Part shown: one piece after another, positions 41,672-64,000 of the stretch
Numbering within the stretch: the stretch's first letter is position 1
Layout of the letters: every line of letters begins with the position of its first letter
Program-made: the position numbers and the translations under genes
Virus record (IMG/VR): IMGVR_UViG_3300025070_000022
Coordinates: 25,941-89,940 of that record
From: a virus
Reading direction: 5' to 3' (one strand)
DNA: 64,000 bases
The notes under the pieces: model-generated
Told to the model about the DNA's origin: nothing
The model's database searches: none
What the model saw: the letters and a program-made list of their open reading frames with translations, nothing else

Positions 41672-43015
41672 TCAAGCCACATTGGTAATCTTGCCTTGTC
41701 CCTTGAAGAACGAACAACCAACTTCACCAATGGTTCGGTAAAGTGCTTGGTTGCCGAGTCGTCCCACACCGAATGGGTTTCCGTTAGAAACACCGTCTTC
41801 AAAGTATTGAGTCGGCTTAAGAACGGAGAGCCACATATGGTCAGTGTCCAAGAACAACAAGTCGCTAATCCCACTATCTGCGGCATTGAGAGTTGTAGTC
41901 ATATCCTTAACAGGAATCAATGGAATGTCGTAGTAGGTTGCCACACGGAAACCAACTTCTGCACCCTTAATTCCACGAATACCGTTATGGGTAGGAATAA
42001 CTTCCTTACGGTCCATGAATCGCTCTTGGCTTTGTAGCAAGTCAGCGATTGCTTGGATAGTATCGTATCCCGTAAGAATACACTTAGGGGAACCTCCGGA
42101 GATTCTCAAGTTGCGAATCATGTTGTTAAGCAAAGTAAGAGTTAGTGGTCGAACCGAAGATGCGGCGTAAGAACTGTTAAAGTCAACTTCTGCATCTAGG
42201 AAAGAAGCAGTATTTCGGTTATCTCCGTAGATTTTACCTAGATTGTTAGTAGCACTCAATGGGTCAGTGCATAGAACATTGCTGTCCATAGCCGCTAATT
42301 CAGCGTTACTTGTAACGACCTTCAAAAGCGAAGTATAGTTTCGCTCAATATCTCCAAGAGCCGCCGATTCACCGTAGACTTGTAGAGGCATGAGAAGCAT
42401 CTTGTTTTGTGCTTCTGCGTGTGCCTTACCCATGTCTTCACGGATAATAGCCCGAATATCTCCAAGTCCATCATCAATTTGAGCCATTTCCATTGCGAGT
42501 TCGGAAATATCGAACTGGTGTGCAATAGTCTTAGGACTCATAAAGAGTTGAGCGTAAGTTGGAGCCATAGAACCAAGTCCATCTGCCGCAGTAGAAAGGC
42601 CGGCGTTTTCTGGAACACCGCCAATTTGGTCAGCGTGTGGCTTACTACCACCAATTCCAATAACACCAGTGCCAGTAGTATCGCCAGTAATATCCACTTC
42701 TAGTCTAGGGTTAGAACCACCAAATGGTCGGCTCTTAAGAATTCTCCATCCGGAAGAAGCATAAGGTCGCTTTGCTAACATAGCAAGAGCATTTACTTCT
42801 CGGTTTAGCATAGACCAAACTTTTTGTCCGTATAGTTGGTTATACATTGCTGTTCCAGTAATACTGGATGTGCCGCTTGCCGCCGCATCACTAATGTCGT
42901 GTGCAGTGTGTAGTCCTTGAACTGCACCTGCTTGTTTCAACACGGAGTTTCCGCCAAAGGCAGGTAGTCCGTATGTCGCCGCTTCTAAATCTCTAATTGT
43001 GTTAATGTATCCCAT
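41672..43015 (-). CDS. Major capsid protein (HK97 fold)
   Basis: 447 aa downstream of the protease; PKTIAHQFDISE, YDIPLIP, LFLDTDH. Confidence 0.85.
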   Translation of the reverse strand: MGYINTIRDLEAATYGLPAFGGNSVLKQAGAVQGLHTAHDISDAAASGTSSITGTAMYNQLYGQKVWSMLNREVNALAMLAKRPYASSGWRILKSRPFGGSNPRLEVDITGDTTGTGVIGIGGSKPHADQIGGVPENAGLSTAADGLGSMAPTYAQLFMSPKTIAHQFDISELAMEMAQIDDGLGDIRAIIREDMGKAHAEAQNKMLLMPLQVYGESAALGDIERNYTSLLKVVTSNAELAAMDSNVLCTDPLSATNNLGKIYGDNRNTASFLDAEVDFNSSYAASSVRPLTLTLLNNMIRNLRISGGSPKCILTGYDTIQAIADLLQSQERFMDRKEVIPTHNGIRGIKGAEVGFRVATYYDIPLIPVKDMTTTLNAADSGISDLLFLDTDHMWLSVLKPTQYFEDGVSNGNPFGVGRLGNQALYRTIGEVGCSFFKGQGKITNVA

Positions 43016-43025
43016 TTAATTCACC

Positions 43026-44231
43026 TCAAATGTTACCGCCAACAGCCTTATGAATGTCGCTCCAACTCATGTCAGCAATCTCTTCTGTAGAGAAAACCTT
43101 AGTGGTTGTAGCGGCTTCTGTAGCCTTGCGGATTGTGTTCTTTTCTTCTGTAAGTGACTTACGGAGTTCGGAGAACTCTGCGTTAAGTCGTGCGATTTCG
43201 GATTGTGCATCATATTCTGCCTTAGCAACTAAGTCTGCTCGGTTAGTTTCTTCCGAAGCGAATCTCTTAGCGAAGGTTTCTTCGAGAGTTTCGAGTCCCA
43301 TCTTCTCAAGTTGTTCTGCTCGGTATTGCTCGTAAGCCTTCTCGATGTTTGAAGCACTTAGGTTAAGAGTGCGGAATTCTTCGTTAGCAAAGGTCTTACT
43401 AACCATTCCTTCTTTCTTTGCTTGCGCTCCAGCACTTGCCATAGGTTCACCGGCTCCACCAAGATTAGTTTCGTCGTTTCCATCAAGAGTAGTACCCTTG
43501 GCTTCCGGAGTTGACCCACCTTCTGCGTCTTCGGTATCCATGTATTCATCCATTTTCTCATTCAATGGGTGGCCGCCAGACATTTCCATTGATGGTTCTT
43601 CTTCTTCTTTTCGTAGCGTGTTGACTTCTTCTAGAAGAGTATCTAGTTCTGCCAATGCCTTTTCTAATTTGTTCATTGTTTTGTCCTCCTTTAATATATC
43701 GAACCTCGCTTCGGGGTTGATTCCTTTTTCGCATATTGTGACTTCGTGGAGTTCTAGTTTGCTTATCTCGCTATACTCCCCTAATTCATCGTGGTGTTTC
43801 TTCACTTTTTGTAGTGCTTGTCCACCTATGCTAAAAGACCTCAATGACCCCTTGCGAATTCCTCGGTTTATTTCCTTTGCTTTTTCAATATCATCTCTTA
43901 ATTTAATTACTACGAAGAACCCAACATCATCTACTTGGGTCTTCCATAGTTTTCCATTACTATCTCTATGAGATTCAACTACTTCTCCAACTTGAACATT
44001 GGAGTGATTAGTCATAACATTGCGGAACTTATTGTGTTCCATGAATTTTTTAACTGCCTCATTTAAGGCTTTGAGAGTAATTAAATCATTTTGCTTATCT
44101 ACCATTTCGATAGAAGCATAGCCTCCAATCATTAAATCATCATTCGACGCCTTCAAGATGGAGAAGTCATTCTCCTCCATTGCAGACATAATCGTAGACA
44201 TGATGCTCAAGCCGTCTTGTAGCAAATACAC
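43026..44231 (-). CDS. Prohead protease fused to scaffolding domain
   Basis: IGGYAS..VDKQND, H, SFSIGG, LHEVTIC..GINP; acidic coiled-coil C-terminal half; true start may be ATG at 44201 or 44189. Confidence 0.85.
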   Translation of the reverse strand: MYLLQDGLSIMSTIMSAMEENDFSILKASNDDLMIGGYASIEMVDKQNDLITLKALNEAVKKFMEHNKFRNVMTNHSNVQVGEVVESHRDSNGKLWKTQVDDVGFFVVIKLRDDIEKAKEINRGIRKGSLRSFSIGGQALQKVKKHHDELGEYSEISKLELHEVTICEKGINPEARFDILKEDKTMNKLEKALAELDTLLEEVNTLRKEEEEPSMEMSGGHPLNEKMDEYMDTEDAEGGSTPEAKGTTLDGNDETNLGGAGEPMASAGAQAKKEGMVSKTFANEEFRTLNLSASNIEKAYEQYRAEQLEKMGLETLEETFAKRFASEETNRADLVAKAEYDAQSEIARLNAEFSELRKSLTEEKNTIRKATEAATTTKVFSTEEIADMSWSDIHKAVGGNI

Positions 44232-44238
44232 TATTTAA

Positions 44239-46725
44239 CTAGTTCGGTTGTTTAGTGTATTTTAAGCCTTTGAACTTGTCTTCATAAATATTCCAAATAC
44301 CTTCGTCAGTATCCTTATCTACTGGCTTCTGCTCATATCCAGTCCATGCTAACCACATATCTTTACCTTCTACTGGAACTACTCTAAAGTGAATCTTAGT
44401 TTCAAACTTATTTCCATTTAGAATGTATTCATGGTATCCATGTCTTTGTACTCCCATTTCTACATCTCCAAGGTCAATTAGTTTTTCCTTTGAAACATTT
44501 GTAGAGATTTGAGCAGGGAACTTAGTAGCCTTACCAAACAGCGAGAATATATCATCATCGGAGTCTAGGTCAATATACCAAGATAAGTTCTCACCTTTGT
44601 AATTCACAATAAAGTCCAAGTTTCCATCCTTTCTAGAATAGACTTTGAATTCTGCTTTTTCCGACTCCTTTTGAATTTCACTATCGTCAACAGAAATTTT
44701 ACCATTATTATATGACATTCCTTCCGAGGCTTGTACCCAAGAACCGAGCCTATTCTTGTCGCTTTCTAAAACAGATTCATAATCCCCTGCATGATTGCCA
44801 GCCAAGAAATTGTGCAAATCTCCTATGGTCTGCGGCTTACCCTTTCCTTTTACAAACTGTTTAATTGACGCTCTCAACTTTCCTTGAATAGTTTTTAGAG
44901 CCATCTCCGCTTCTTGTTTCCACATATCTAAGTCTGCAATAGCATTCTTAGACATTAAATTATTCTCATTAAATCCATAAATGGTAAATCCATCCATGCT
45001 CTTAGCAATTAAAGTAGCACTACCATGTATGTTATCGGTAATCGTTATCCCTTTCTTGAGTGCTTCTACCTTGTACTTCAAAGACGGCTTAGTATCCTTA
45101 GATAATAATTCTAAGGTCACAATCTTATCGGGAGTAGCGGCTTCCGGAACCTCGATTACTTTGGCAGAATATAGAGTAAATCTACCATCCGACTCCTTTA
45201 CCTCATCTACCTTGACTCTAATAATTTCTCCAACCTTAACATCTATCTTGGTATTTAGTGCCTTACCTACATTCATGTAGAGTTTGTTATCCATTTCTAC
45301 TATATGCTTTCCTTCTTCTAGAACTGGGCCAGCCCCTAATGAATAAGAGAATAAGCCGGACTTAGTAGACTTCTTATCTAGAACTAGCATATCTAAATCT
45401 ACAAATTTCTTCCACTTAACCCACTTTGGGTTTTTCTTAGTTCCTACGAAATAAGTAGAAGTTAGGTCTTTGATAACAACCCCTTCCGCAGTAGGCATCT
45501 CCATTATTTCCTTAGCATATTCTTCTATGTCTTTCAAAGAATCTGCAATTCTAGTATCTTTCTTAGAAGGGAATGCAATAGCATCGGAAGACTTTGCTGA
45601 ATAATTATTGAATAGAATGTTAATCCTAATCTGTAGTTCATCATCCATCAAGTTCTTCTCTTCATGTCGCATTATGTCGAAAACATGCGCTCTTAGTTTT
45701 GCTTCGGGATATTTATTCTTGAATACATGAGCAACTGTATCTGCTCTATGTAGGGCTTTATCGCCATCGAATAGAATGAGTTCTGCATCTAGAATACAGT
45801 CACCATAAGATTTCTTTTTCATTTCTGCTACTTGTTCAGTACATTTTTCAGTAATGTCCTTACCGTTAAATGAAAAGATTTCAACCTTATCATCAATCTT
45901 ATGAATTTGTATTCTCATTCCATCGTACTTTTCTTGTACGACATAATCTCCGGAGAATCCCATCAATTCATTCATATCTTCAATATCGAAGATACGATAC
46001 ATCGGTTTGTTAGGAGTTAGGAAGTTAGAGATGGCCTTCTCTTCCTCGGACTTTTCTGCCTTCTTTAATTCTACTCCAACTAATTTACTCCAGTCTTCTT
46101 CGGAGTGTCCGGATAAAAATACCTTCTTGAGTTCCTTTAGTGCATTCTTGAATTTAGAATTCACCTTCTTACTATCTTTATCGTCGCCATAGTGTTCTAT
46201 AACGAATAGAGGAACATCATTCAATGCTAAGTCTAGTCCTTCCAAACCATCAGTTATCTCGTCGCCTTGATATTCTAATTCATTATAGAGTTTAGAAGAT
46301 AGGGCATCATCACCGTTTCTAATTGCATAGTGAATGAACTTCATAAAAACATCTACATTCGATAGTAGAGATTCTAGTACATTCCCTTTCATTTTCTTAG
46401 AGAATGGGTCGTTGACATTCTCGGAGTCAAATCTCATTTGCTTAACAGAATCATAGATAATTTTAGCGGAGCCACTTGTAGGACTACCTGCATCATCGGA
46501 TTCAAGGTGACGCTCATCTAAATATTCTTTGAGTTCCTTACCAAGAGGACTAAGGCTATCATACGATTCCTTAATTTTCTCAAGTATATTTCTCCAGCGA
46601 CCCCCATACTCTTTAGGGTCACTTCTTGCAGATAAATAAGCGACTCTAGTTTCCTCGAAGAGAGATAAAATCTCATTAGATAAGGGAGCCTTATCCTTCT
46701 CGAACATTAGACCAGTGGTTGCCAT
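44239..46725 (-). CDS. lig: ATP-dependent DNA ligase with N- and C-terminal extensions
   Basis: EKYDGMR, ILDAE, VFDI, EGVVIK, WVKWK and OB domain. Confidence 0.9.
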   Translation of the reverse strand: MATTGLMFEKDKAPLSNEILSLFEETRVAYLSARSDPKEYGGRWRNILEKIKESYDSLSPLGKELKEYLDERHLESDDAGSPTSGSAKIIYDSVKQMRFDSENVNDPFSKKMKGNVLESLLSNVDVFMKFIHYAIRNGDDALSSKLYNELEYQGDEITDGLEGLDLALNDVPLFVIEHYGDDKDSKKVNSKFKNALKELKKVFLSGHSEEDWSKLVGVELKKAEKSEEEKAISNFLTPNKPMYRIFDIEDMNELMGFSGDYVVQEKYDGMRIQIHKIDDKVEIFSFNGKDITEKCTEQVAEMKKKSYGDCILDAELILFDGDKALHRADTVAHVFKNKYPEAKLRAHVFDIMRHEEKNLMDDELQIRINILFNNYSAKSSDAIAFPSKKDTRIADSLKDIEEYAKEIMEMPTAEGVVIKDLTSTYFVGTKKNPKWVKWKKFVDLDMLVLDKKSTKSGLFSYSLGAGPVLEEGKHIVEMDNKLYMNVGKALNTKIDVKVGEIIRVKVDEVKESDGRFTLYSAKVIEVPEAATPDKIVTLELLSKDTKPSLKYKVEALKKGITITDNIHGSATLIAKSMDGFTIYGFNENNLMSKNAIADLDMWKQEAEMALKTIQGKLRASIKQFVKGKGKPQTIGDLHNFLAGNHAGDYESVLESDKNRLGSWVQASEGMSYNNGKISVDDSEIQKESEKAEFKVYSRKDGNLDFIVNYKGENLSWYIDLDSDDDIFSLFGKATKFPAQISTNVSKEKLIDLGDVEMGVQRHGYHEYILNGNKFETKIHFRVVPVEGKDMWLAWTGYEQKPVDKDTDEGIWNIYEDKFKGLKYTKQPN

Positions 46726-46731
46726 ATCGCA

Positions 46732-47214
46732 TCAGTAAAGATTAAGAGAGTCTGCCATATAAGTTTCCGATTGTAAAATAGCCTTAACACCCGCTTCTTC
46801 ACCCTTAGTCCAATGGCCGTCTTCGATTAGTTTAGGTAGTTTTTTCAATCTATTAATCATTCGAGTAAATTTTTCAACTCTTTTAGGGTCGTTATACTTG
46901 CCATATGAAAGTCTTTCTTGCTTAATTCCATCATTTAGCAGTTGGATAGTATTTTCTATGGTTATGTCGGACTTACCAAAAGTATCTCCAGCAAGACCAT
47001 ATCCGGAATGAGTACCTGTATTGTTCTCAATCTTAGTATCATCTTTTTCTGCCTTGGGTTCCTTGGTCTTAACTTCGGGGGCTTCTATTTCTAACGGTAG
47101 AGTTTCTCTACCCTCTTGTTGTAAGACTTCCTTTGCTTTACGAACCAATCTAATTGCTCTACTAATTTGTGCTTCCTCTTCTGTCATTTTTTCCGGCATA
47201 TCAGTTCCTCCCAT
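46732..47214 (-). CDS. Hypothetical head-module protein
   Basis: ORF between portal and ligase. Confidence 0.6.
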   Translation of the reverse strand: MGGTDMPEKMTEEEAQISRAIRLVRKAKEVLQQEGRETLPLEIEAPEVKTKEPKAEKDDTKIENNTGTHSGYGLAGDTFGKSDITIENTIQLLNDGIKQERLSYGKYNDPKRVEKFTRMINRLKKLPKLIEDGHWTKGEEAGVKAILQSETYMADSLNLY

Positions 47215-47428
47215 TTACGAACTTTTCAATATCATTCCAACTCATCTTATGGATAGCATCAGCATCCGGTACAGATTGATTTGACATAGATGGAGTAGGG
47301 CTATCGACAACAACAAAGCCCGACTTCATAAGCAAGTTATCTTTGTTGTAGACTGCTTGTTCTAGAGTCTTAATTCTACCAACCAATTCCTTTAGAATAA
47401 TCAGCATGTCTTCATTACTTTCACTCAT
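47201..47428 (-). CDS. Small head-module protein with C-terminal MSWNDIEK motif
   Basis: C-terminus resembles the scaffold C-terminus MSWSDIHK. Confidence 0.65.
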   Translation of the reverse strand: MSESNEDMLIILKELVGRIKTLEQAVYNKDNLLMKSGFVVVDSPTPSMSNQSVPDADAIHKMSWNDIEKFVNGRN

Positions 47429-49696: not shown

Positions 49697-49914
49697 TTGT
49701 TTTCTGTTCTTCTTCTTTTCTTAGCCGGTAGTTGGACTACATCGGGAGTATCTGCACTACTTCTAGTAGGGCGATGAGTAGTATCGGGCGGTAGTCCTCC
49801 TACAGAATAGTCTCTAGATTTCTTAGTAGTTCTATCTTCTGCGGCTCGTTGAGAACGGACCTGTGCCAATTCTTTAGCCAATCTTCTTTCTTTTTGTGCT
49901 GTGTCTTCTGTCAT
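49690..49914 (-). CDS. Hypothetical basic protein
   Basis: ORF coupled to the portal gene. Confidence 0.55.
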   Translation of the reverse strand: MTEDTAQKERRLAKELAQVRSQRAAEDRTTKKSRDYSVGGLPPDTTHRPTRSSADTPDVVQLPAKKRRRTENKW

Positions 49915-51557
49915 TATGGTATTCTCCTTTCTGTTCTTGAATCCACATTTTGATTACCTGCGTCTGCTGGCAATCCGGTCATTCGCTTATCGGGGCCTAC
50001 GCTCATGGATGGTTTATTTCTTGTGGTAGCGGGATTCTCTTGAGGCTTACCTCTTCCTTCTAACATTTCTCTATTCATCTCATTAATATCTCTTTGGTCA
50101 AAGTTAGACCCTGCTAAACCATCCATACCGGATTGTGCTTTGTTTTCTTGTCCTTCTTGGGGAGGCTCCTCTTTAGGCTCCGGCTTATTGAAGGTAAAGT
50201 TTCCATCCTCATCCATCTCTACTTCAAATCCTAAGTTCTTAACAGAAGCCGCAATGTTGACTTCTAATTCCCTTCGTCTAAGTTCAGCAATTTCATCTTC
50301 TTCTTCCGAAGGAGGTAGTTTCAAATCCCAATCAGTAATTCCAAATTGCTTTGTTAAGAACGGGAAGACATAATTATTGTAGACATTTTGTGCCATTTGA
50401 ACAGCACGATTAGTGACTAATATTTGCATACCTTCGTTGTTAAGTCCACCGCTAGTAGTGTTGTCAGCCATGAAGACTTTACTAACCCCGTAGAAAGCAG
50501 AAATTCTATCTCTCAAATCATCCTTAACAGAAACATATTCCATTTCTTTAAGACTATCCATGAACTTAATCCATTCAACTGAACCCTTGCCATTGTCGGC
50601 TTCGATTCCCATAACTGGAATATAGTGGGGGTCTTGTTCCATTCTTTCTTTTACACTTCTCCAAAAACTAGCCATAGAGTCCATGTTTCTAGTCTGTACT
50701 GCTAGTAACCCTCTAGGCATTCTGCTCTTGGTATAGGAAGAATTGACATAATTTTCCATTGCTATTAAAGTCATTATATGATTGAATAGAGTCATAACTG
50801 GAGAATGGCCATATAGCCTACTTGGGCTGTATTTACTAAAATGTAGGACTTCACCTTTAATGTAGTACTGCTCATCTCCATTTGCTCTATTGACATAATG
50901 TATAGGGTGTAAATTACTGCCACATTCACCACAAGGTTCGTGTGGCTCCTGTGCAATAAAATTTCTATGATTTATACAAGTGAATCCCTTAGTTCCTCTA
51001 ACTCCAAGTTCATCAGCGTAAATTGCCATAGTAACAGGGTCGCCTCTGAACAACTCTTTGATTCTATGCATACGAATTTTACCATTACCATCTAAGTAAT
51101 ATTCCTTGACAAGAACAATGTAAGCATCATCCATAATGTTTAGGTCGTCTTCTAATTCTTTAAGAACATCAATGAATAACTGTTCGGATTGATTGATGTA
51201 TCCCTCAATAAACTTCTCGGCATATTCTAATTGTTTTGGGTCAGGTTTAGATAATTCCAAGGAACCACATCTAGCACATTCACTAACTGGTCTTTTGTGG
51301 GTCTTTTGACAAGAGTTACATCGGGCTTCGTAAGCCTTCTCCCAAACATATCCTCTTCGGAAAATTTCTTGTTTTAGTTGAGTAATACAAGTACGAACAA
51401 TCACAGACTGTTGGGTGACATTGTAGACCATTGGGGCTGTCATCATGTAAGAGTTCTCACGCTCTTGTATTCCGATGTTGTAGACCTGCCTATCCGCCGG
51501 TTTGGGAGTAGACCTTCTAAACAGTCCACTTATTCCGAATCTTCGCTTTTCTGCCAT
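49914..51557 (-). CDS. Portal protein with Zn-ribbon insertions
   Basis: DLNIMDDAY, EVLHF, RLYGHSP, MPRGLL, ISAFYGV; between terminase and protease. Confidence 0.85.
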   Translation of the reverse strand: MAEKRRFGISGLFRRSTPKPADRQVYNIGIQERENSYMMTAPMVYNVTQQSVIVRTCITQLKQEIFRRGYVWEKAYEARCNSCQKTHKRPVSECARCGSLELSKPDPKQLEYAEKFIEGYINQSEQLFIDVLKELEDDLNIMDDAYIVLVKEYYLDGNGKIRMHRIKELFRGDPVTMAIYADELGVRGTKGFTCINHRNFIAQEPHEPCGECGSNLHPIHYVNRANGDEQYYIKGEVLHFSKYSPSRLYGHSPVMTLFNHIMTLIAMENYVNSSYTKSRMPRGLLAVQTRNMDSMASFWRSVKERMEQDPHYIPVMGIEADNGKGSVEWIKFMDSLKEMEYVSVKDDLRDRISAFYGVSKVFMADNTTSGGLNNEGMQILVTNRAVQMAQNVYNNYVFPFLTKQFGITDWDLKLPPSEEEDEIAELRRRELEVNIAASVKNLGFEVEMDEDGNFTFNKPEPKEEPPQEGQENKAQSGMDGLAGSNFDQRDINEMNREMLEGRGKPQENPATTRNKPSMSVGPDKRMTGLPADAGNQNVDSRTERRIP

Positions 51558-51615: not shown

Positions 51616-51975
51616 TCAAGAACCCTTACGCCACTTCTTGTTTTTCTTTTCTTTGGTTTTACTAGGACTCCACTTTACCTTGTCAGCCCAATAAGCGGCA
51701 GACATTTTACCCCGCTTAATGTTCTTCTTATGTCGTGATTTGAATGCCTTTCTTTGCCCTGCGGTTTGATTGGTCTTAACGCCCTTTTGTCCAAATTTAA
51801 TATATTTGTACTTTCCACCTTCGGAAGCCATAACATGATGTGACTTGCCAGAATTGTCATTTAGCCTTTGTGGAGAATTAAAAGACCTCAATCCCTTAGC
51901 CTTCATTCTTTTACGGGCCGCTTCTCTTGGTCCGGATTTAGGTTTTCTCTTCAACAAAATATCTTCCCAACTCAT
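51616..51975 (-). CDS. WxxILK-tagged basic protein
   Basis: MSWEDILLKR; IKFGQKG...AFKSRH...SAAYWADKVKW, a pattern recalled from small viral proteins. Confidence 0.7.
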   Translation of the reverse strand: MSWEDILLKRKPKSGPREAARKRMKAKGLRSFNSPQRLNDNSGKSHHVMASEGGKYKYIKFGQKGVKTNQTAGQRKAFKSRHKKNIKRGKMSAAYWADKVKWSPSKTKEKKNKKWRKGS

Positions 51976-51984
51976 AACAATTCC

Positions 51985-52302
51985 TCACAAAAACGAATAA
52001 CGGGTTTCTGTTTTAATCCCCATTAATTTACCATCAACAACAATTCTTTGTTTTTCTTTTTTAGTTTCTAACAGGTTTCTGTTCTTCAAATATTTTATGA
52101 TGTAATTATGTATCCTATCTGATTTAATACTTTTATGTAGTTTAGAATACCTGCTTCTTACATCTTCTATGAATATATCAAATTCCTTTATGTTTAGGGA
52201 TTGCCCTTTTAATAGTCGGGCTTCTTGAATAATAATCTTGTTTAGAAAGTCGTAGTCAATTTTCCTTACCCTCCCCCGTTTAATTACTTTTTCCCAACTC
52301 AT
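51985..52302 (-). CDS. WxxILK-tagged basic protein
   Basis: MSWEKVIKR. Confidence 0.65.
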   Translation of the reverse strand: MSWEKVIKRGRVRKIDYDFLNKIIIQEARLLKGQSLNIKEFDIFIEDVRSRYSKLHKSIKSDRIHNYIIKYLKNRNLLETKKEKQRIVVDGKLMGIKTETRYSFL

Positions 52303-52700
52303 TCTTCTCCCCTCAATTGGTTTTCTTTAGAAGTCTTATCATCATCAATTGGGCCACCTTTAGCCCAAGTGTAGCAGGTTCTAGCCGAATGGCATTTGAA
52401 ATCGTGCATCCAACAGTAGCCTAAGCGACCATCTTTATCTGTAGAAAGTGGCATACATTCATCCATTCTTGGAGATATGTCAAATGCAATACAGTTACTA
52501 CAATTAGATTTCTTAGCAACATCAGCAGTAGTATTCCATTTCTTAGCATACTCCTCCCAATACTTTTCGTCGTTTAGATTAAGAGGCCCGTATTGAATAT
52601 GTTTTTCTTTTACTGCCCTGTCCCTATTCTTAGTATTGAGTTTCAAATCTTGGGTAGCCAAGGGGCATTCTAGTTTCTTTAATATAATTGTCCAATCCAT
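52299..52700 (-). CDS. WxxILK-tagged Cys-rich (metal-binding) protein
   Basis: MDWTIILKK; CPLATQD...CSNC...GYCWMHDFKC...C. Confidence 0.7.
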   Translation of the reverse strand: MDWTIILKKLECPLATQDLKLNTKNRDRAVKEKHIQYGPLNLNDEKYWEEYAKKWNTTADVAKKSNCSNCIAFDISPRMDECMPLSTDKDGRLGYCWMHDFKCHSARTCYTWAKGGPIDDDKTSKENQLRGEE

Positions 52701-52704
52701 AATA

Positions 52705-52911
52705 TCACTTCGGGCTTAGTCCATACTTTCTAACCACATTTCTCAACGCAATTCTTTTCTTAGTTTCATTATCCCTTCCACTAAGGTACGGATTATTATA
52801 TTCTTTTTTGTATTCCTCAATATGCTCAGGTGAGAAGTGATAGGTCTTACCATCTATAGTAAATCTTTGACCGATTGCTCTTATTGTTTTTATAACCTCT
52901 TGCCAACTCAT
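52705..52911 (-). CDS. WxxILK-tagged small protein
   Basis: MSWQEVIKT. Confidence 0.6.
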   Translation of the reverse strand: MSWQEVIKTIRAIGQRFTIDGKTYHFSPEHIEEYKKEYNNPYLSGRDNETKKRIALRNVVRKYGLSPK

Positions 52912-53300
52912 GCTGTAAATGGCCCCCTTCTTTTACTAGTTGGCTCATGTGTGTAAAAATCTCCATCTTTGTGAAGAAACAACTTACCTTCCTTTATTAG
53001 TTCAGATAGGGCTTTATCTAAATCCTTTTGACTAGCAATATGCTTCAAATCTTTCATGGCTAAAGCACCTCCTTGTTTGGTCTTGGCAGAAAGGATTTTT
53101 TTCTTAATACCCTTCATTGTATTTTTTGCTTTTTTATTTAACAAATCAAAATCTTCACGGTTGATTTTGCCATCTTTATTTCTATCCAAGTGCTTACTTT
53201 GTTTAGGTGTTAATTTCTTATTTACACATTCTTCACAGTTGCATGGCTTACCCATCTTTTCTGTTCCGCAGTGCCTCTTTAGTATATCTTTCCAAGCCAT
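52908..53300 (-). CDS. WxxILK-tagged protein with EF-hand-like loop and winged-helix-like tail
   Basis: MAWKDILKR; HC..CNCEEC; DRNKDGKINREDF. Confidence 0.65.
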   Translation of the reverse strand: MAWKDILKRHCGTEKMGKPCNCEECVNKKLTPKQSKHLDRNKDGKINREDFDLLNKKAKNTMKGIKKKILSAKTKQGGALAMKDLKHIASQKDLDKALSELIKEGKLFLHKDGDFYTHEPTSKRRGPFTA

Positions 53301-53301
53301 A

Positions 53302-53574
53302 TTATCTACCTTCTACTTTTTTGTAGGCTTTCTTTCCAGCCTTTGTTCTAGGAACATGTTGTTTCCCCTTTCTAGTACCGGCTCTTTTCTTAGCACTCTC
53401 TCGCCTTTTTTGTTCGGGAGTAAGGGAATCTCTTACAGATTTAGGACCATACCTTCCACCTTCTGTAGTAAGGTTGTCCCAATCTTCCTTGTTCCACTCA
53501 ACCATGTCTTTCTGCGCTTCTGTTAAAGCCTTCAAAACATCTTTCCAACTACTTCTTGTTGACAAAGCCACCAC
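53302..53574 (-). CDS. C-terminal half of a DUF5872-like protein
   Basis: SWKDVLKA; W..EDW...RYGP...LTPEQ...KKRAG..KGKQHVP. Confidence 0.55.
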   Translation of the reverse strand: MVALSTRSSWKDVLKALTEAQKDMVEWNKEDWDNLTTEGGRYGPKSVRDSLTPEQKRRESAKKRAGTRKGKQHVPRTKAGKKAYKKVEGR

Positions 53575-53785
53575 CTGCCTTTTGGTAAAGTCTATTCAAC
53601 TCTTGAGATTTTCTAGCAGACCATTTGTATTTTCCAGTACCGTGAGTGTTCTTGGCCCACAATCTCCTATGTATTCTCTCTCTAAGTTTAGGATTAGTAT
53701 AAGTTCCTTTAGGAGCCTTGTAAGTATGCTTAGGAACCTTCCTTTTGCTCCTACTATTTTTCTTGAGAATCTCTTGCCATGTCAC
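53549..53785 (-). CDS. WxxILK-tagged N-terminal half of a DUF5872-like protein
   Basis: GTG start, MTWQEILKK; YTNPKLRERI...WSARKSQ...YQKAGGGF. Confidence 0.6.
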   Translation of the reverse strand: MTWQEILKKNSRSKRKVPKHTYKAPKGTYTNPKLRERIHRRLWAKNTHGTGKYKWSARKSQELNRLYQKAGGGFVNKK

Positions 53786-53881: not shown

Positions 53882-55498
53882 CTAAGCATTCTCTCTTCTA
53901 AATAGTTGCTTTTCGTTTTTACCATACTTAGTCAAAACTTCTTCGATTTTATTTTTAGCAAAGCCAGCACTAATCATCATCATTTCATCTTCACTGCTTT
54001 CTTCATCTTTCATACCAGCATCTAAGAAAGACATAATAATATCCTCGTCTTCCTTATCCATAGTAGTCTGTTTTAATATCCGTTTAACCTTGTTATAATA
54101 TGCTTTGAATGAAGTATCTCCGAATTCCTTCTTAGCAATGATTCCGCCAATGTTTTCCATTTCATCCATAATAGACATTTTACAATTGCCTTGGTATTTT
54201 GAAATATCATCCACATATATACCTTCCTTAGCAAAATCAAAACCTACATGGTCTTTGTGATTCTCCCACTTCATTAACTTGAAAATCTCATCACAACGAC
54301 CTTTGTACCAATCTGCCTTCTTGTAAGATTTCTTCATTCTAATTAGTTCTAACAGAAGATTGGCATTACCTTTCTTCATCCTAAAATGGGGTAAGCATTT
54401 ACTCAATAGTTCAGTCACATCACTTTGAGAATAGAAATTTAAACGATTAACTGGCCGTGTGTCTTGAGGAGATTTTTGGTCTAAGTGTAATTTACCAATG
54501 CCACCCAAAGCCTTGTGTATTTCAGTCATAAAGGCCTTGCCTCTATCTCCTGTAGCCACCAGTCCGACCCTAGGGTTGTGGTTTCTATCCATAGTGATGT
54601 AGCCATCCGAATCAATAAAGGCGGCAGTGTAAGCCCAAATATTCTTCTTTATTTCCGAGTCTACAGTGAAGTATCTTCCCGAAACAGAAGTGACTTCTAA
54701 TGACTTGGCCATCTTAGAAATAGAGTGCCATGAATTCCTATCATATAATTTAGAAGGCATTCTATCATGTAATTCTCTCGCAGATATTCCTTGATTGTTC
54801 TTGACTTGTTTCAAGATATACTCTCTAGTTTCTTCCTTAATTGATTTCTTTAAAGAGGAAGTAGACACATTTTTAATTTGCTTTCTAAATTCTCTCTTAG
54901 CCAAATTCATTTCTTTGGATAGTGATGAATATTGTTTTCCATAACTAGTATCTTTCAAATCTAATTCTGCTTCCCAGTACTTGCATATTGAATCAATAAC
55001 CCCTCTTCGTTGAGATGCTTCTTTCATACTGTGCAACTTTAAAAGGTCATTCTCATTGAACTTCATTTTCATAAAAGGCTCTCGATAAGGAGTGAGCCAA
55101 TAAATGCTCTTTATGCACTTAGTAATATGTTCGGAATACCCATCAATGATAGCATCTATACTTTTAGCCATTCTATCTCTAGATTCTCCTTTTAGGCTTC
55201 TACGCTGTTTTCTTAAAGATTTGATAACTTCGGGAACTTCCTCACCATAGTACATTTGTTTTTTAGGAAAGGCTTCGATATGCCTTTTTGCTTGAGAAGC
55301 GTTTAGTTTAAATTCTGTAGAAATTTTAGAAACGAGTTCATGCTCGGAAAAAATAGATAGTTCGGTTGAAAGACTTAGAGCAATATTATCATCTAACATA
55401 CTCTTAGCGTCTTCTAAGTCTTTACTTGCTTCTTCTTCTAAAGCGGCTACTTGCTCCAGTCTTTCGCTAGCCTCTCTTAATTCGTCTGGCGTTGGCAT
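53882..55498 (-). CDS. Multidomain protein with LAGLIDADG endonuclease domain
   Basis: WAYTAAFIDSDGYI; preceded by a helical region and winged-helix-like GISARELH. Confidence 0.75.
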   Translation of the reverse strand: MPTPDELREASERLEQVAALEEEASKDLEDAKSMLDDNIALSLSTELSIFSEHELVSKISTEFKLNASQAKRHIEAFPKKQMYYGEEVPEVIKSLRKQRRSLKGESRDRMAKSIDAIIDGYSEHITKCIKSIYWLTPYREPFMKMKFNENDLLKLHSMKEASQRRGVIDSICKYWEAELDLKDTSYGKQYSSLSKEMNLAKREFRKQIKNVSTSSLKKSIKEETREYILKQVKNNQGISARELHDRMPSKLYDRNSWHSISKMAKSLEVTSVSGRYFTVDSEIKKNIWAYTAAFIDSDGYITMDRNHNPRVGLVATGDRGKAFMTEIHKALGGIGKLHLDQKSPQDTRPVNRLNFYSQSDVTELLSKCLPHFRMKKGNANLLLELIRMKKSYKKADWYKGRCDEIFKLMKWENHKDHVGFDFAKEGIYVDDISKYQGNCKMSIMDEMENIGGIIAKKEFGDTSFKAYYNKVKRILKQTTMDKEDEDIIMSFLDAGMKDEESSEDEMMMISAGFAKNKIEEVLTKYGKNEKQLFRRENA

Positions 55499-55507
55499 AT
55501 TTTTCCC

Positions 55508-56941
55508 TCAAAAGTTTAGTCCCATTATGCCGCCACGCCTATTATTTACAGGCGCATCAAATATCCCCAAATCATCTAACAATAAGAAGTTTTCACTAAT
55601 GGTCTTGGTAGCCGCATTAGCCAATGCTAAACTCATTACCATATCGTCGTGTGCGCCAACTCCCTCAAACTTACCTTTCTGCGTAATAGAAAACATAGAT
55701 AATTCTTCAATCAATGCAGAAGTAACTCTTCTACTTTCTTCGTTAGCATAAGGTAGGTTTATTTTTTCATTCTCAAAATTCATTTGTAGATTCAAGATAA
55801 TATCCTGTTTCTTTTTTCTTGTTGTATTGAAATCGTGGACATTTAAATCAGAAATGTTTCTCAATTCTTGTGTAAAGGATTTAGCGAATACATTTGTTTC
55901 AAACAAAATGACTTCCGGTTGAAAGATTTTACCTATCAATCTAACTTTTTGTAGATTCTCCCTAAACTCTACATTCTTAGCCCTGTCTACATAAACAACA
56001 CTTTTGTTATCTTCTTCATCTACTTCCAATACAGTGATTACATTGTAGTCGCCGTCAGTAGAGATAGCAGGGTCAATACCAACATAGTACTTGTAACCCT
56101 CTCTACGAGTGGGCTTCAAGACTAAACTTTTGTTCTTAGACCTCTCTAAGTATTCGGGATTGAATAGCGAAGTACCAGTGGATACAGGAACACAAAGGTA
56201 TTCCCTTGTGAATTTAAGCGAGCCTATTTCTGCCTTCCTAGCCATGAGAGCCTCATAGTCCCAACGATTAGGCCAAAGAGGTTCATTAAGAGAGTTAAAA
56301 CAAGGATACTTTCTAACTGTATATGCCTCGTTTTCCTCTAGTTGAGTGTAAATATCCGTGTAAGAGAAAGGAGTTCCAATAACACGAAGAGAAGCGGAGT
56401 GGTGTAGAGTTGGTATCATGTCACCATAAAACCAATCTGTAACCTTTTGAATTGCAGTTAAACTAAACTCTTTCAAAGGGTCGTCAATAATAATCTCTTG
56501 AGGGTGAAGACCACGAATCTGTGAACCAACAGAACGCTCAAGAATTTGATTTCCATTAGTGAGAGTAATGTTTCCAATAGCCCAACCCTTAGCAGGTTTG
56601 AAATGTTTAATTGTAGGGTTATTGAATACCTTGTCAATGTCTCTCATGTGAACCATAGTCTGCTTTTGGTTAGAGGAAATGTAGAGCATTTGATATGGGG
56701 GTGGTTGGAAGATTAAATTCCAAACAACCCATGAGTGCATGAAGACAGACTTACCGTGACCTCGACTACAAATGATTACTGTTCTTTGAGTCTGCCCCAT
56801 TAACTCAAGCCACTCTTGTTGATGACTTGCGAAATCCCAACCTAGAACATTTTCAAAGAAATAAGGAAATGAATTCTTAGATAGTTCTAAGTCCATTTGC
56901 CGTTCTAGGTTTAACCCTGCAATGTCAGACATATCGCTCAC
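55508..56941 (-). CDS. terL: Terminase large subunit
   Basis: HQ, SRGHGKS, IIIDD, VIGTP, GIDPA, HDDMVMSLALA. Confidence 0.95.
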   Translation of the reverse strand: MSDMSDIAGLNLERQMDLELSKNSFPYFFENVLGWDFASHQQEWLELMGQTQRTVIICSRGHGKSVFMHSWVVWNLIFQPPPYQMLYISSNQKQTMVHMRDIDKVFNNPTIKHFKPAKGWAIGNITLTNGNQILERSVGSQIRGLHPQEIIIDDPLKEFSLTAIQKVTDWFYGDMIPTLHHSASLRVIGTPFSYTDIYTQLEENEAYTVRKYPCFNSLNEPLWPNRWDYEALMARKAEIGSLKFTREYLCVPVSTGTSLFNPEYLERSKNKSLVLKPTRREGYKYYVGIDPAISTDGDYNVITVLEVDEEDNKSVVYVDRAKNVEFRENLQKVRLIGKIFQPEVILFETNVFAKSFTQELRNISDLNVHDFNTTRKKKQDIILNLQMNFENEKINLPYANEESRRVTSALIEELSMFSITQKGKFEGVGAHDDMVMSLALANAATKTISENFLLLDDLGIFDAPVNNRRGGIMGLNF

Positions 56942-61805: not shown

Positions 61806-62152
61806 TGTAATCTCTCCTACATCAATCTCTTTGCTTCAATCAAATACATATACTGTTTTCTTAATCCCATCTTTGAAGTAACGGCCCCTGCTAGTTTCTT
61901 TAAATTCTTTTGAAAACTGAAAAATTCGGGAGAGTAAAGGTCATTTAACTCATCTTTATCTTCAACCCTTTCGTAGTATTCATCAAATTTATTCAATAGG
62001 GCCTCACCCGCTTGCTTTATTTTGGGGTCTTCATTGTAGGCCATAAAGAAAAGTAATTCGTGAACATGGCCATGTAAAGGGGCATCTCCATCTTCAACAT
62101 ACCAAGTATTTTTTAGTATATTCTCCCAACTCATTGTAATCTCTCCTGCATC
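61797..62152. repeat. 27-bp direct repeat with one mismatch (61797-61823, 62126-62152)
   Basis: CCAACTCATTGTAATCTCTCCT(A/G)CATC; flanks ORF 61817-62134. Confidence 0.85.
61817..62134 (-). CDS. WxxILK-tagged accessory protein
   Basis: MSWENILKN; flanked by a 27-bp repeat. Confidence 0.7.
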   Translation of the reverse strand: MSWENILKNTWYVEDGDAPLHGHVHELLFFMAYNEDPKIKQAGEALLNKFDEYYERVEDKDELNDLYSPEFFSFQKNLKKLAGAVTSKMGLRKQYMYLIEAKRLM

Positions 62153-62784
62153 TTTTTCTTAATGTCAAGCCAAATTTCCGGATTGTTCTGTGCTAACACT
62201 TCTTGAACAACTTGCATCTGTGCGACAATAATTGTATCTTGTCGCTTGTGGACAAGTTTGCCTTTGAACTCCATCATGTATTTTAAAGACTCACGAACTT
62301 CTCTAGCCAACTTCACTAGAGCGTCTAATTCCTTAGCATCTAAATCATCTCTAGATGCTATCTCGGTGATTTTATCATCGAGCAATTGAATGTTATTTGA
62401 TAGCATATCGACCTCATTCAAATCTTTCTTGGCAATAATAGCCGCCGCAGACTTTTGAACAACGGGCTGTAAATGGTGCTTAACATGTCGATGGACTTGG
62501 GCCTTAGAAATTCCAAGGCCTACGCTGACCTCCTCGGCTGTGATTAGACCCTCATGCAATTGCCTTTCGTATTCTGCCCTCATTGGGTCTACACAAATGG
62601 CACACTTTGGATTACTACTTTGCACATATTCTCCCATGTGATTTCTTTGATGCTGTGCAGAAGTACCGCTTCTCCAGTTCATCTTTTCATCTAATTCATC
62701 GGGAGTAATAGTAAGAGATTCTAAGTCGGCTTCCATAGAATCAACATCACTGTGTTGACAAAAGGCACAACTCTTTCTTCTCAT
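62131..62784 (-). CDS. Putative terminase small subunit
   Basis: Two CxxC + HTH + HxxxH repeats followed by a coiled coil; upstream of terL. Confidence 0.5.
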   Translation of the reverse strand: MRRKSCAFCQHSDVDSMEADLESLTITPDELDEKMNWRSGTSAQHQRNHMGEYVQSSNPKCAICVDPMRAEYERQLHEGLITAEEVSVGLGISKAQVHRHVKHHLQPVVQKSAAAIIAKKDLNEVDMLSNNIQLLDDKITEIASRDDLDAKELDALVKLAREVRESLKYMMEFKGKLVHKRQDTIIVAQMQVVQEVLAQNNPEIWLDIKKKMQERLQ

Positions 62785-63026
62785 TTCTGCACACCCGTAC
62801 TAATGATTTCAAATTCTTCTGTCTTATTACCAAGCATCTCTAATGAAACATAGATAGGTAGGTCGAAGCCAATGATAGGACGAGAGGAAGAATCGTAAAT
62901 CATCTTAGTCTTCACTGCGAACTTCTTTTCAATCATTTTAATCAGTTCGTCTAAACTTCCCGTCTTTCCAACGATTTCCTCTATTTCATCTAGAGTCATT
63001 TCTTTTAGTATGTTTTCCCAAGTCAT
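62781..63026 (-). CDS. WxxILK-tagged protein
   Basis: MTWENILKE, ATG at 63026 after GGTGA. Confidence 0.65.
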   Translation of the reverse strand: MTWENILKEMTLDEIEEIVGKTGSLDELIKMIEKKFAVKTKMIYDSSSRPIIGFDLPIYVSLEMLGNKTEEFEIISTGVQK

Positions 63027-63036
63027 ATTATTCACC

Positions 63037-63456
63037 CTATATCCCAAATTTTCCTTGAACATTAGGGTTGCCTTTTGAGGCTTGAATCATATCACCCATT
63101 CTTTCAACTTTGAAGCCAAATTGTTCTAATACAGGAATACCATGTTGTTGCACAAAATTAGCATCACCAAATAGGTCTTGTTGCATTTCCCATATTAACG
63201 CTCTATTACCGCTTCCTTTTCTTCCCCTACCTGTAAAATTTTCAGGAACTACCTTAATGGCAAATTTCCCATTTTTTTGAAATTCGGGGTCTTTTTTATA
63301 CGCACTAATTATTTCTGCCATATGTTTTTTTACATTTTCAATCTTCATTTTTTGATTATCAGTAAGTTTAGGTTCAGCAGAAGTCTTGTTTCTTCTAAAC
63401 CTACCAAACGGTGCTTTCTCTATTCCGTCTTGTTTTAGTATATCTTTCCAAGTCAT
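63037..63456 (-). CDS. WxxILK-tagged protein
   Basis: MTWKDILKQ. Confidence 0.7.
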   Translation of the reverse strand: MTWKDILKQDGIEKAPFGRFRRNKTSAEPKLTDNQKMKIENVKKHMAEIISAYKKDPEFQKNGKFAIKVVPENFTGRGRKGSGNRALIWEMQQDLFGDANFVQQHGIPVLEQFGFKVERMGDMIQASKGNPNVQGKFGI

Positions 63457-63836
63457 TCTTTCACTTCCCTATTAAAAATAATTTCAAACTCTTTTTCTCT
63501 TCTATCTGTTCCTTTCAGTTCCATGACTCTAGCAGTGTAATTGAATAGATTAGGATAGTTGTAAATCTCAGCACCTCCTATGGGAAATCTGTTTTTACTC
63601 GACAACTCTATTGAGATAGCAAGGTGAACTTTATTCGGTCTTTTACCCGTTGTTAAGAACCATTCTGCTAAAGACTTGTTTGGCGTATCCTCATTAAAAA
63701 CATCATCATTATCATAATACATAGTTGATAGTTTGCCCCTGCCTTTCACTATCTCCATGACTCTATTCTCTACTTCTTTTTTATCTAAGTAGTCGTAGTT
63801 TATTGTATCGCTTTTCAATATGTTTTTCCAAGTCAT
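63453..63836 (-). CDS. WxxILK-tagged protein
   Basis: MTWKNILKS, ATG at 63836. Confidence 0.7.
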   Translation of the reverse strand: MTWKNILKSDTINYDYLDKKEVENRVMEIVKGRGKLSTMYYDNDDVFNEDTPNKSLAEWFLTTGKRPNKVHLAISIELSSKNRFPIGGAEIYNYPNLFNYTARVMELKGTDRREKEFEIIFNREVKE

Positions 63837-64000
63837 AGTAGCACTTCCTTCCAACTTTTAATAACCGGACTAACCTTTACGCTCATGTTCGACTTCATGT
63901 AATCTTTAATCAATTTACGAGTCTTAGCCGGAGTCAACTCGATTGTGAATTCAGTAATGGTCCCTCCTAAGTCGGGAACTTTCATGTATCTAGATAGCAT
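63833..64000 (-). CDS. Partial protein ending in a KSWKEVLL motif
   Basis: Open frame from the window edge to TGA at 63835-63833. Confidence 0.55.
   Translation of the reverse strand: MLSRYMKVPDLGGTITEFTIELTPAKTRKLIKDYMKSNMSVKVSPVIKSWKEVLL

Follow-up and report, generated by a model that had tools for sequence, protein, structure and literature searches.

A C-terminal tail common to the protease-scaffold and a small protein of a magrovirus, and its relation to the N-terminal tags of the same virus

Introduction

The protease-scaffold protein of a magrovirus, encoded in a 64,000-nucleotide (nt) stretch of DNA that we call the window, ends in a tail of about 20 residues that recurs at the C-terminus of a separate protein of 75 amino acids (aa). 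From sequence and by analogy, we read this tail as a common docking element carried by the scaffold, by the 75-aa 'mini-scaffold' and probably by a nested scaffold-only product, and we read the short N-terminal tags found on many other proteins of this virus as a second motif class. We put the probability of this reading at roughly 0.6. The window is the right 64 kilobases of the 89,940-base-pair (bp) IMG/VR virus record IMGVR_UViG_3300025070_000022 (positions 25,941 to 89,940); coordinates below are window positions unless a locus is named. Its relatives and its gene set (HK97-like capsid protein, S78 protease, portal, terminase and ATP-dependent ligase) identify the source as a magrovirus, one of the tailed viruses that infect Marine Group II archaea.

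To our knowledge, nothing is known about how magroviruses build their heads. A 20-residue tail common to two or three assembly proteins offers a concrete and testable handle on capsid assembly, and it could also serve to load such shells with proteins. Separating two look-alike signals also means that the tag system is not 'explained' by a likeness that does not hold in sister lineages. Magroviruses, whose hosts are uncultured archaea of the ocean, are abundant (PMC5434244). The magrovirus literature searched, supplements lying outside the search, gave no sign of the tail or the tag; with the same restriction, Philosof 2017 contains neither 'motif' nor 'N-terminal' and uses 'scaffold' for contigs only.

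Results

The protease-scaffold and a 75-aa protein end in the same tail

The protease-scaffold gene (43026..44231, minus strand) encodes a 401-aa protein in which a prohead serine protease (S78) is fused to a helical scaffold domain, as assigned with Pfam, PHROG and AlphaFold2 (AF2). The N-terminal domain is a Peptidase S78 domain (HK97-type prohead serine protease), with profile scores above the curated cut-offs for PF04586 (41.3 bits, cut-off 21, residues 30-183) and PF14550 (26.8 bits, cut-off 24), and it is also matched by PHROG head maturation protease families. Among 54 homologs, little or no variation is seen at H76, S77, S132 (at least 90%) and S134, which are candidates for the catalytic Ser and His. 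The AF2 model (mean predicted local distance difference test, pLDDT, of 64) shows a protease fold (residues 23-167) followed by a disordered boundary (171-187), one helix (188-210), a second disordered segment (210-287), two long helices at 293-338 and 342-375, and two short tail helices at 382-387 and 390-397; the tail is predicted to be a terminal helix-turn-helix. Scans with Pfam and PHROG gave protease families only for the 401-aa protein and nothing above the cut-offs for the 75-aa protein. The term scaffold is therefore limited here to proteins that would work like known scaffolds, and does not imply membership of their families.

The C-terminus of the protease-scaffold is MSWSDIHKAVGGNI, within a longer stretch ...EEIADMSWSDIHKAVGGNI. 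This tail occupies 43029-43070 on the minus strand, next to the stop codon (43026-43028), and the last 22 residues of the protein are FSTEEIADMSWSDIHKAVGGNI (43029..43094, minus strand). It stands at the extreme C-terminus of the helical scaffold domain, directly upstream of the capsid gene. The 75-aa open reading frame (ORF; 47201..47428, minus strand) ends with ...AIHKMSWNDIEKFVNGRN, its tail MSWNDIEKFVNGRN being located at 47204..47245 on the same strand. Scaffold and 75-aa protein have the common ending M-S-W-x-D-I-x-K-x-V-x-G-x-x, with exactly 11 residues after the W in both. A sequence-only reading of the window had pointed to three C-termini, those of the scaffold, of the 75-aa ORF and of a protein fragment at 63833-64000, and all three are found at those places. 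Its proposal that two other proteins carry the scaffold motif holds for the 75-aa ORF, which has the tail; the protein at 63833-64000 has a tag-like end, and two classes had been merged.

The two tails are far above chance. Each of the 171 ORFs of at least 60 aa in the 89,940-bp record was shuffled 300 times; M.W..[IV].K was seen twice in the last 20 residues, against a null mean of 0.01, and none of the 300 shuffles gave two occurrences. The full motif of the tail, longer than first noted, is [DE]-h-[AS]-x-M-x-W-x-[DE]-[IV]-[HN]-x-[LM]-[VA].

The likeness between the two proteins extends beyond the tail. An hhalign comparison of the small-protein and scaffold alignments placed residues 12-74 of the small protein onto residues 346-400 of the scaffold, with a probability of 95.9% and an E-value of 6e-9. 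By this profile-profile alignment, the small protein is a paralog of the last ~55 residues of the scaffold, whose final helix, linker and tail it reproduces as a protein of its own. The AF2 model of the small protein (mean pLDDT 65) contains helices at 3-27, 56-61 and 64-73, and the same two short terminal helices are predicted in scaffold and small protein. A search of the ESM Atlas with the small protein returned unnamed viral clusters only.

Conservation of the tail

Three IMG/VR searches yielded three locus sets, here called clades, with the window's scaffold (clade 1, 58-93% identity), P0009 (clade 2) and P0003 (clade 3) as queries. All 195 complete protease-scaffold ORFs in these sets, whose bias toward tail-bearing genes is considered below, end in the tail (78/78, 70/70 and 47/47 in clades 1, 2 and 3). 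The alignment of 54 sequences singles out W390 as one of only two invariant columns past residue 181, and M388 and H394 are conserved in at least 90% of the homologs; on this alignment, no other part of the scaffold domain is as well conserved as the tail. Locus searches with P0012 and P0158 as queries found no relatives, and P0081 gave 3 weak loci only.

The sole search free of tail-peptide bias was a HMMER search without word index against 1.84 billion representatives, which gave 1193 matches. Among the best 150 of these, 26 carry a W-x-[DEQ]-hydrophobic tail in their last 32 residues, a loose pattern, and 20 fit the strict pattern [ML][STDNE]W.[DE][IVL][HEN]. Since 20-26 of the best 150 representatives carry the tail, it predates the three clades and extends beyond them. 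Among named viruses, the nearest relatives of the protease-scaffold are haloviruses such as HVTV-1, with ~30% identity in the protease domain.

Distant S78 homologs (P0033, P0040, P0062, P0082 and others) include many fusions of 900-1300 aa in which the protease stands first or last. In a further set of protease-scaffolds the amphipathic ending is a different one, of the type [DE]-[DE]-L-L-x-K-h. Given this second type of amphipathic tail, terminal helices may be a general device of the S78 protease family.

The small ORF with the same tail is also conserved. It lies upstream of the scaffold gene in every locus with enough flanking sequence (42/42, 33/33 and 14/14 in clades 1, 2 and 3), and the architecture of its product is the same in all three: a helix at the N-terminus is followed by the conserved segment L-L-[MR]-K-[SA]-G-F-V, then by a T/S-P linker and finally by the tail. 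The clade 2 counterpart is 106-143 aa long. At the position preceding the W, scaffold and small-protein tails both have S in 9/37 unique pairs and both have one of D, E or N in 24/37; this matched residue at -1 may reflect a single evolutionary event or split.

A candidate internal start within the scaffold gene

An internal in-frame ATG (Met186, 43674-43676) is placed at the boundary between the protease and scaffold domains, with the sequence GGAGG located 8 nt upstream (43685-43689); together they form a candidate start (43674..43689, minus strand) for a product of ~216 aa. A strict Shine-Dalgarno-like word occurs 3-22 nt upstream of Met186 in 43/66 unique clade 1 genes, against 4.7% elsewhere, the background being all other codon positions of the same 66 genes. 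This word persists although the encoded residues vary, and four representatives of 50%-identity clusters start exactly at Met186. These features suggest that a nested scaffold-only protein of ~216 aa is made from Met186. With the scaffold and the small protein, it would bring to three the proteins that have one tail.

Four studies have RNA libraries with contigs that cover close relatives of the capsid gene and, in part, of the scaffold gene. The scaffold tail is reached in three of the four (X1, X2, X3), and the small ORF is found whole in X2 and X3 and in part in X6, X1 ending before it. Such contigs record presence only, as the libraries can hold DNA, and neither levels nor starts can be read from them; the uncovered segment 44084-45532 is uninformative. 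We take them as a transcript hint for the scaffold tail and the small ORF, short of proof of expression.

N-terminal tags as a probable second motif class

The pattern W..[IV][LIHEM]K has 21 matches in the six frames of the window, 16 of which lie 1-2 residues past a start codon, all on the minus strand. One of these 16 has an uncertain start, and one further variant with ILL, at 51969, brings the number in the window to 17; the whole record contains 23 tagged N-termini, 22 of them distinct. The N-terminal tag is a real feature, a short leader common to unrelated proteins. No Pfam or PHROG family scored above the cut-offs in scans of the 17 tagged proteins. A signal acting at the DNA level was considered and set aside, as the Leu, Ile, Lys and Ser/Thr codons of the tags vary; since this variation is synonymous, selection acts on the peptide.

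Several of the tagged proteins encoded at 51616-53785 (minus strand) are very small (78-119 aa) and rich in lysine and arginine. An EF-hand-like loop under the Pfam cut-off was seen in one tagged protein (52908-53300), and a cluster of Cys residues in another (52299-52700).

The sequence-only reading had proposed that a single amphipathic W-x-x-[IL] helix is the coat-binding element and that cargo proteins reuse it. In its full form, this model has the ~20 tagged proteins and the 324-aa protein described below bind the same pocket as the scaffold tail, in an encapsulin-like loading of cargo, and we consider it doubtful. The group of the window speaks for it. Tags and tails of clade 1 have in common M(-2), W, [DE](+2), I(+3) and K(+5). 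Scored without the W column, their likeness is +8.7, compared with -5.9 +/- 4.1 for the null, a value reached by 0.1% of column permutations; with the Met column also dropped, it is +3.9 compared with -5.4 +/- 3.6 and is reached by 1%. The motif sets used in these tests were chosen by patterns, so that the constrained columns are partly fixed by construction. The Met at -2 of the tail is nearly invariant though it starts nothing, and some of the tagged proteins combine small size with a very basic composition, which is common among internal head proteins. The tag-like motif is moreover conserved at a C-terminus, that of the 324-aa protein, from which it follows that the tag needs no free N-terminus.

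The two other clades argue against a common pocket. Clade 2 retains the tail, as M-S-W-[DE]-E-[VI]-H-x-[LM]-A, whereas its tag is different: 17 distinct examples of F-[DE]-x-A-W-x-h-L-K were collected, against 1-3 weak matches to W..[IV][LI]K. In these genomes (L082-L155, L160-L165) the tag is a 12-residue N-terminal segment of small proteins, x-x-F-[DE]-x-A-W-x-h-L-K-A. In clade 3 the tag is the W-x-x-I-L-K of clade 1 (55 distinct examples), and the tail reads I-N-A-L-V where that of clade 1 reads I-H-K-M-V, N-A replacing H-K at +4/+5. Clade 2 has changed the tag alone and clade 3 has changed positions +4/+5 of the tail alone. The likeness of tag and tail falls short of significance in clade 2 (14% of column permutations) and, without the Met column, in clade 3 as well (14%).

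Tags and tails also differ at their most conserved positions. Tags conserve L(+4) and K(+5), and nothing beyond, whereas tails have a polar [HN] at +4 and a variable residue at +5. Tails further conserve a hydrophobic [LM] at +6, [VA] at +7 and about 6 residues upstream of the Met, and tail positions -6 to -3, +6 and +7 have no counterpart in the tag. Reuse of the scaffold tail by cargo tags is unsupported, since tag and tail show no joint variation from group to group and differ at these positions. We conclude from these comparisons that tags and tails are probably separate motif classes that have a common M-x-W-x-[DE]-[IV] start and evolve independently. A pocket shared by both is possible; we do not favour it.

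A tag-like C-terminus on a conserved 324-aa protein

The fragment at 63833..64000 (minus strand) corresponds to the C-terminal 55 residues of a conserved 324-aa protein, hereafter ORF X, whose full-length copy is L156:273-1247 (minus strand), near the left end of the record. It ends with ...VIKSWKEVLL, and the L at +4 assigns this end to the tag class and not to the tail class. The pattern W..[IVL][LIV] was seen twice in the last 9 residues, in the two copies of this one gene, against a null mean of 0.50; since 9% of shuffles reached two, the end is within chance in this genome alone. Among its relatives, K-S-W-[KRQ]-[DE]-[VLM]-L-[LV] is retained at the C-terminus of 7 homologs with 43-75% identity, and W-x-x-hydrophobic-L is retained down to 27% identity (L252-L254; range 27-97%). 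The weakest match, the partial L255, does not keep W-x-x-hydrophobic-L. ORF X matched no Pfam or PHROG family, and a search for it in five clade 2 records found no match, an empty answer that carries no weight.

The SWKEVLL ending could in principle be a by-product of the ribosome-binding site of an overlapping downstream gene, and not a peptide signal. The stop codon of ORF X overlaps the next ATG (ATGA), and the W-K-E-V codons give a Shine-Dalgarno-like word 4 nt away, the codons TGG AAG GAA GTG of the window containing GGAAGGAAGTG; the chance level of the motif in this genome points the same way. However, W-R-D-[LI]-L-V in L250/L251 is encoded from TGG CGA GAT, which contains no ribosome site, the site lying in the later L-V codons, and this shows that the C-terminal peptide itself is conserved. 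In addition, distant homologs keep W-x-x-hydrophobic-L with other codons, and the substitutions in this segment are conservative at the protein level. The by-product explanation is largely refuted by these observations, and we now regard it as very improbable.

Three N-terminally tagged genes (MTWKNILK, MTWKDILK and MTWENILK; 62781..63854, minus strand) are located between ORF X and a conserved Cys-rich gene of 217 aa (62131-62784). At the same junction, relatives (L245-L254) have one other tagged gene or none, and the ORF X stop codon always overlaps or abuts the next ATG. At the left end of the record (L156:1-1247), the junction is occupied by a different, untagged ORF of 46 aa. The two record ends repeat each other except at this junction. 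The junction after ORF X is a swap point for tagged genes.

Organization of the head-gene module

The head genes are found on the minus strand in the order terminase (55508-56941), portal (49914-51557), a 640-aa gene, a tagged 117-aa gene, the 75-aa ORF, a 160-aa gene, an 828-aa ligase-like gene, protease-scaffold and capsid protein. The major capsid protein (41672..43015, minus strand), HK97-like, is our proposed partner of the tail. It was identified by its match to PHROG 24667, major head protein (E-value 5.7e-21), and scores slightly below the cut-off for PF17236 (23.5 bits, cut-off 24.1). Its N-terminal segment is highly conserved in relatives as Y-I-N-T-I-x-D-L-E-A-x-T-Y-G. An internal segment H-M-W-L-S-V-L-K (MWLSVLK at 41816-41836, minus strand) resembles the tag; it was rejected as such, relatives showing H-[LMI]-W-[LM]-x-V-[ML]-K inside a fully conserved core segment, and the resemblance is probably a coincidence.

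The 828-aa protein (44239-46725, minus strand) contains an ATP-dependent DNA ligase domain (PF01068, 97.6 bits, residues 258-439). Its gene lies within the head module, between the small-protein and scaffold genes, and large N- and C-terminal parts of the protein have no assignment. A 538-aa ORF (53882-55498, minus strand), flanked by the terminase gene and the series of tagged genes, has a segment, FIDSDGYI, that may recall the LAGLIDADG homing endonucleases.

Discussion

A proposed docking handle for the scaffold

We propose that the scaffold would use the terminal helix-turn-helix of its tail as a handle for docking inside the HK97-type shell during assembly, with the coat protein as the most likely partner on the inner face. 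Having the same handle, the small protein would co-assemble with the scaffold or compete against it at the same site, and the nested scaffold-only product from Met186 would carry this handle as well. Whatever reads the tags, including the tag-like end of ORF X, probably does not read the tail in the same way. Docking, a coat-protein partner, release and the loading of tagged proteins are steps that we infer. The coat-binding role that the sequence-only reading gave to the W-x-x-[IL] helix thus survives in part: by its anatomy and by analogy the scaffold tail looks like a capsid-docking element, whereas its reuse by cargo proteins is unsupported.

The partner could instead be the portal, in a nucleation of assembly, the protease domain in trans, for its recruitment or regulation, or other tails, in a bundling of the scaffold core. 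A tail-tail variant could also let the tags join the scaffold core by packing of like with like helices, as has been proposed for the T4 core. These partners would fit the position of the small-protein gene between the portal and scaffold genes, and PMC9958956 describes a T4 targeting sequence that localises proteins to the scaffolding core by a mechanism that is unknown. Yet the scaffold C-termini that have been solved or mapped touch the N-arm of the coat protein (PMC12749128, PMC5644958, PMC12474303). For the full AF2 model, packing of the tail against the protease domain was not reported; this is a weak indication, the output consisting of secondary structure and pLDDT only. On balance, we consider a partner other than the coat protein unlikely.

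Several points weigh against docking of a tail distinct from the tags, beginning with the choice of partner just discussed. The likeness of tags and tails in the window's group goes beyond what column permutation gives by chance (0.1%), and favours a link with the tags. So does the conserved Met at -2 of the tail, otherwise unexplained. The pLDDT within the tail is moderate only (about 57-70). The three clades are query sets labelled by query and identity, not derived from a tree, and in each locus search one of the six patterns was a tail-derived peptide, which biases the sets toward tail-bearing genes. Finally, the protease-scaffold of HVTV-1, the nearest named relative, does not have the tail.

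In the most far-reaching version, a single tryptophan-helix grammar, M-x-W-x-[DE]-[IV], would direct all its carriers to one site on the inside of an HK97-fold shell: the scaffold, the nested scaffold, the mini-scaffold, the 324-aa protein and some 22 small proteins that change fast. We think this improbable. If true, the magrovirus capsid would be an encapsulin-like programmable cargo container, and the tag-coding words would double as joints for swapping cargo genes.

Comparison with known systems

The tail on scaffold and mini-scaffold can be compared with phage 80alpha and the protein CpmB of SaPI1. According to Dearborn et al. 2017 (PMC5644958) and PMC12749128, the 80alpha scaffold and CpmB compete for one site on the capsid protein, and in the latter source the scaffold ends contact the N-arm helix of the coat protein. 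In both cases a small helical protein and a scaffold share a C-terminal element; there it binds one capsid-protein site, and here it would dock in a similar way. CpmB, however, comes from a phage parasite and shrinks the capsid, whereas the small protein is encoded by a gene of the virus itself, present in every relative examined. The sizes are close, CpmB having ~70 aa and the small protein 75 aa.

In herpesviruses, it is the scaffold C-terminus that binds the capsid protein, and UL26.5 encodes a protein identical with the C-terminal part of that from UL26 (PMC12474303). As with pUL26 and pUL26.5, where a protease-scaffold stands beside a protease-less scaffold with the same C-terminus, a start at Met186 would give such nesting. 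Unlike in herpesviruses, the nested product is here deduced from DNA only, and there is an extra, third carrier of the tail that is separately encoded; for the herpesvirus M site, a release cut near the tail, no counterpart was identified. The C and Nu3 genes of phage lambda are another nested protease/scaffold pair. An in-frame start inside the gene, placed where the two domains meet and preceded by a ribosome site, marks such pairs and is seen at Met186. Likewise, a conserved element at the extreme C-terminus of a helical domain, which characterizes scaffolds with a coat-binding tail (80alpha gp46, P22 gp8, herpesvirus pUL26/26.5), is found in the magrovirus protein.

In HK97, the C-terminal tail of the maturation protease gp4 reportedly serves as encapsidation signal and is said to bind the delta (scaffold) domain of the coat protein. 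The proteases belong to the same family (S78), and a short C-terminal tail takes the protein into the prohead in HK97, as it would in magroviruses. In contrast with HK97, the magrovirus coat protein has no fused delta domain, the scaffold being fused to the protease instead.

The N-terminal tags can be compared with the capsid targeting sequence of T4 (PMC9958956): both are leaders of ~8-10 residues on unrelated proteins encoded near head genes. Few proteins carry such a leader in T4, against about 22 here. The T4 type is further defined by loading into the head and by removal of the leader by the prohead protease, which for the magrovirus tags are conjectural. The tail, being C-terminal and longer, has no parallel in the T4 sequence.

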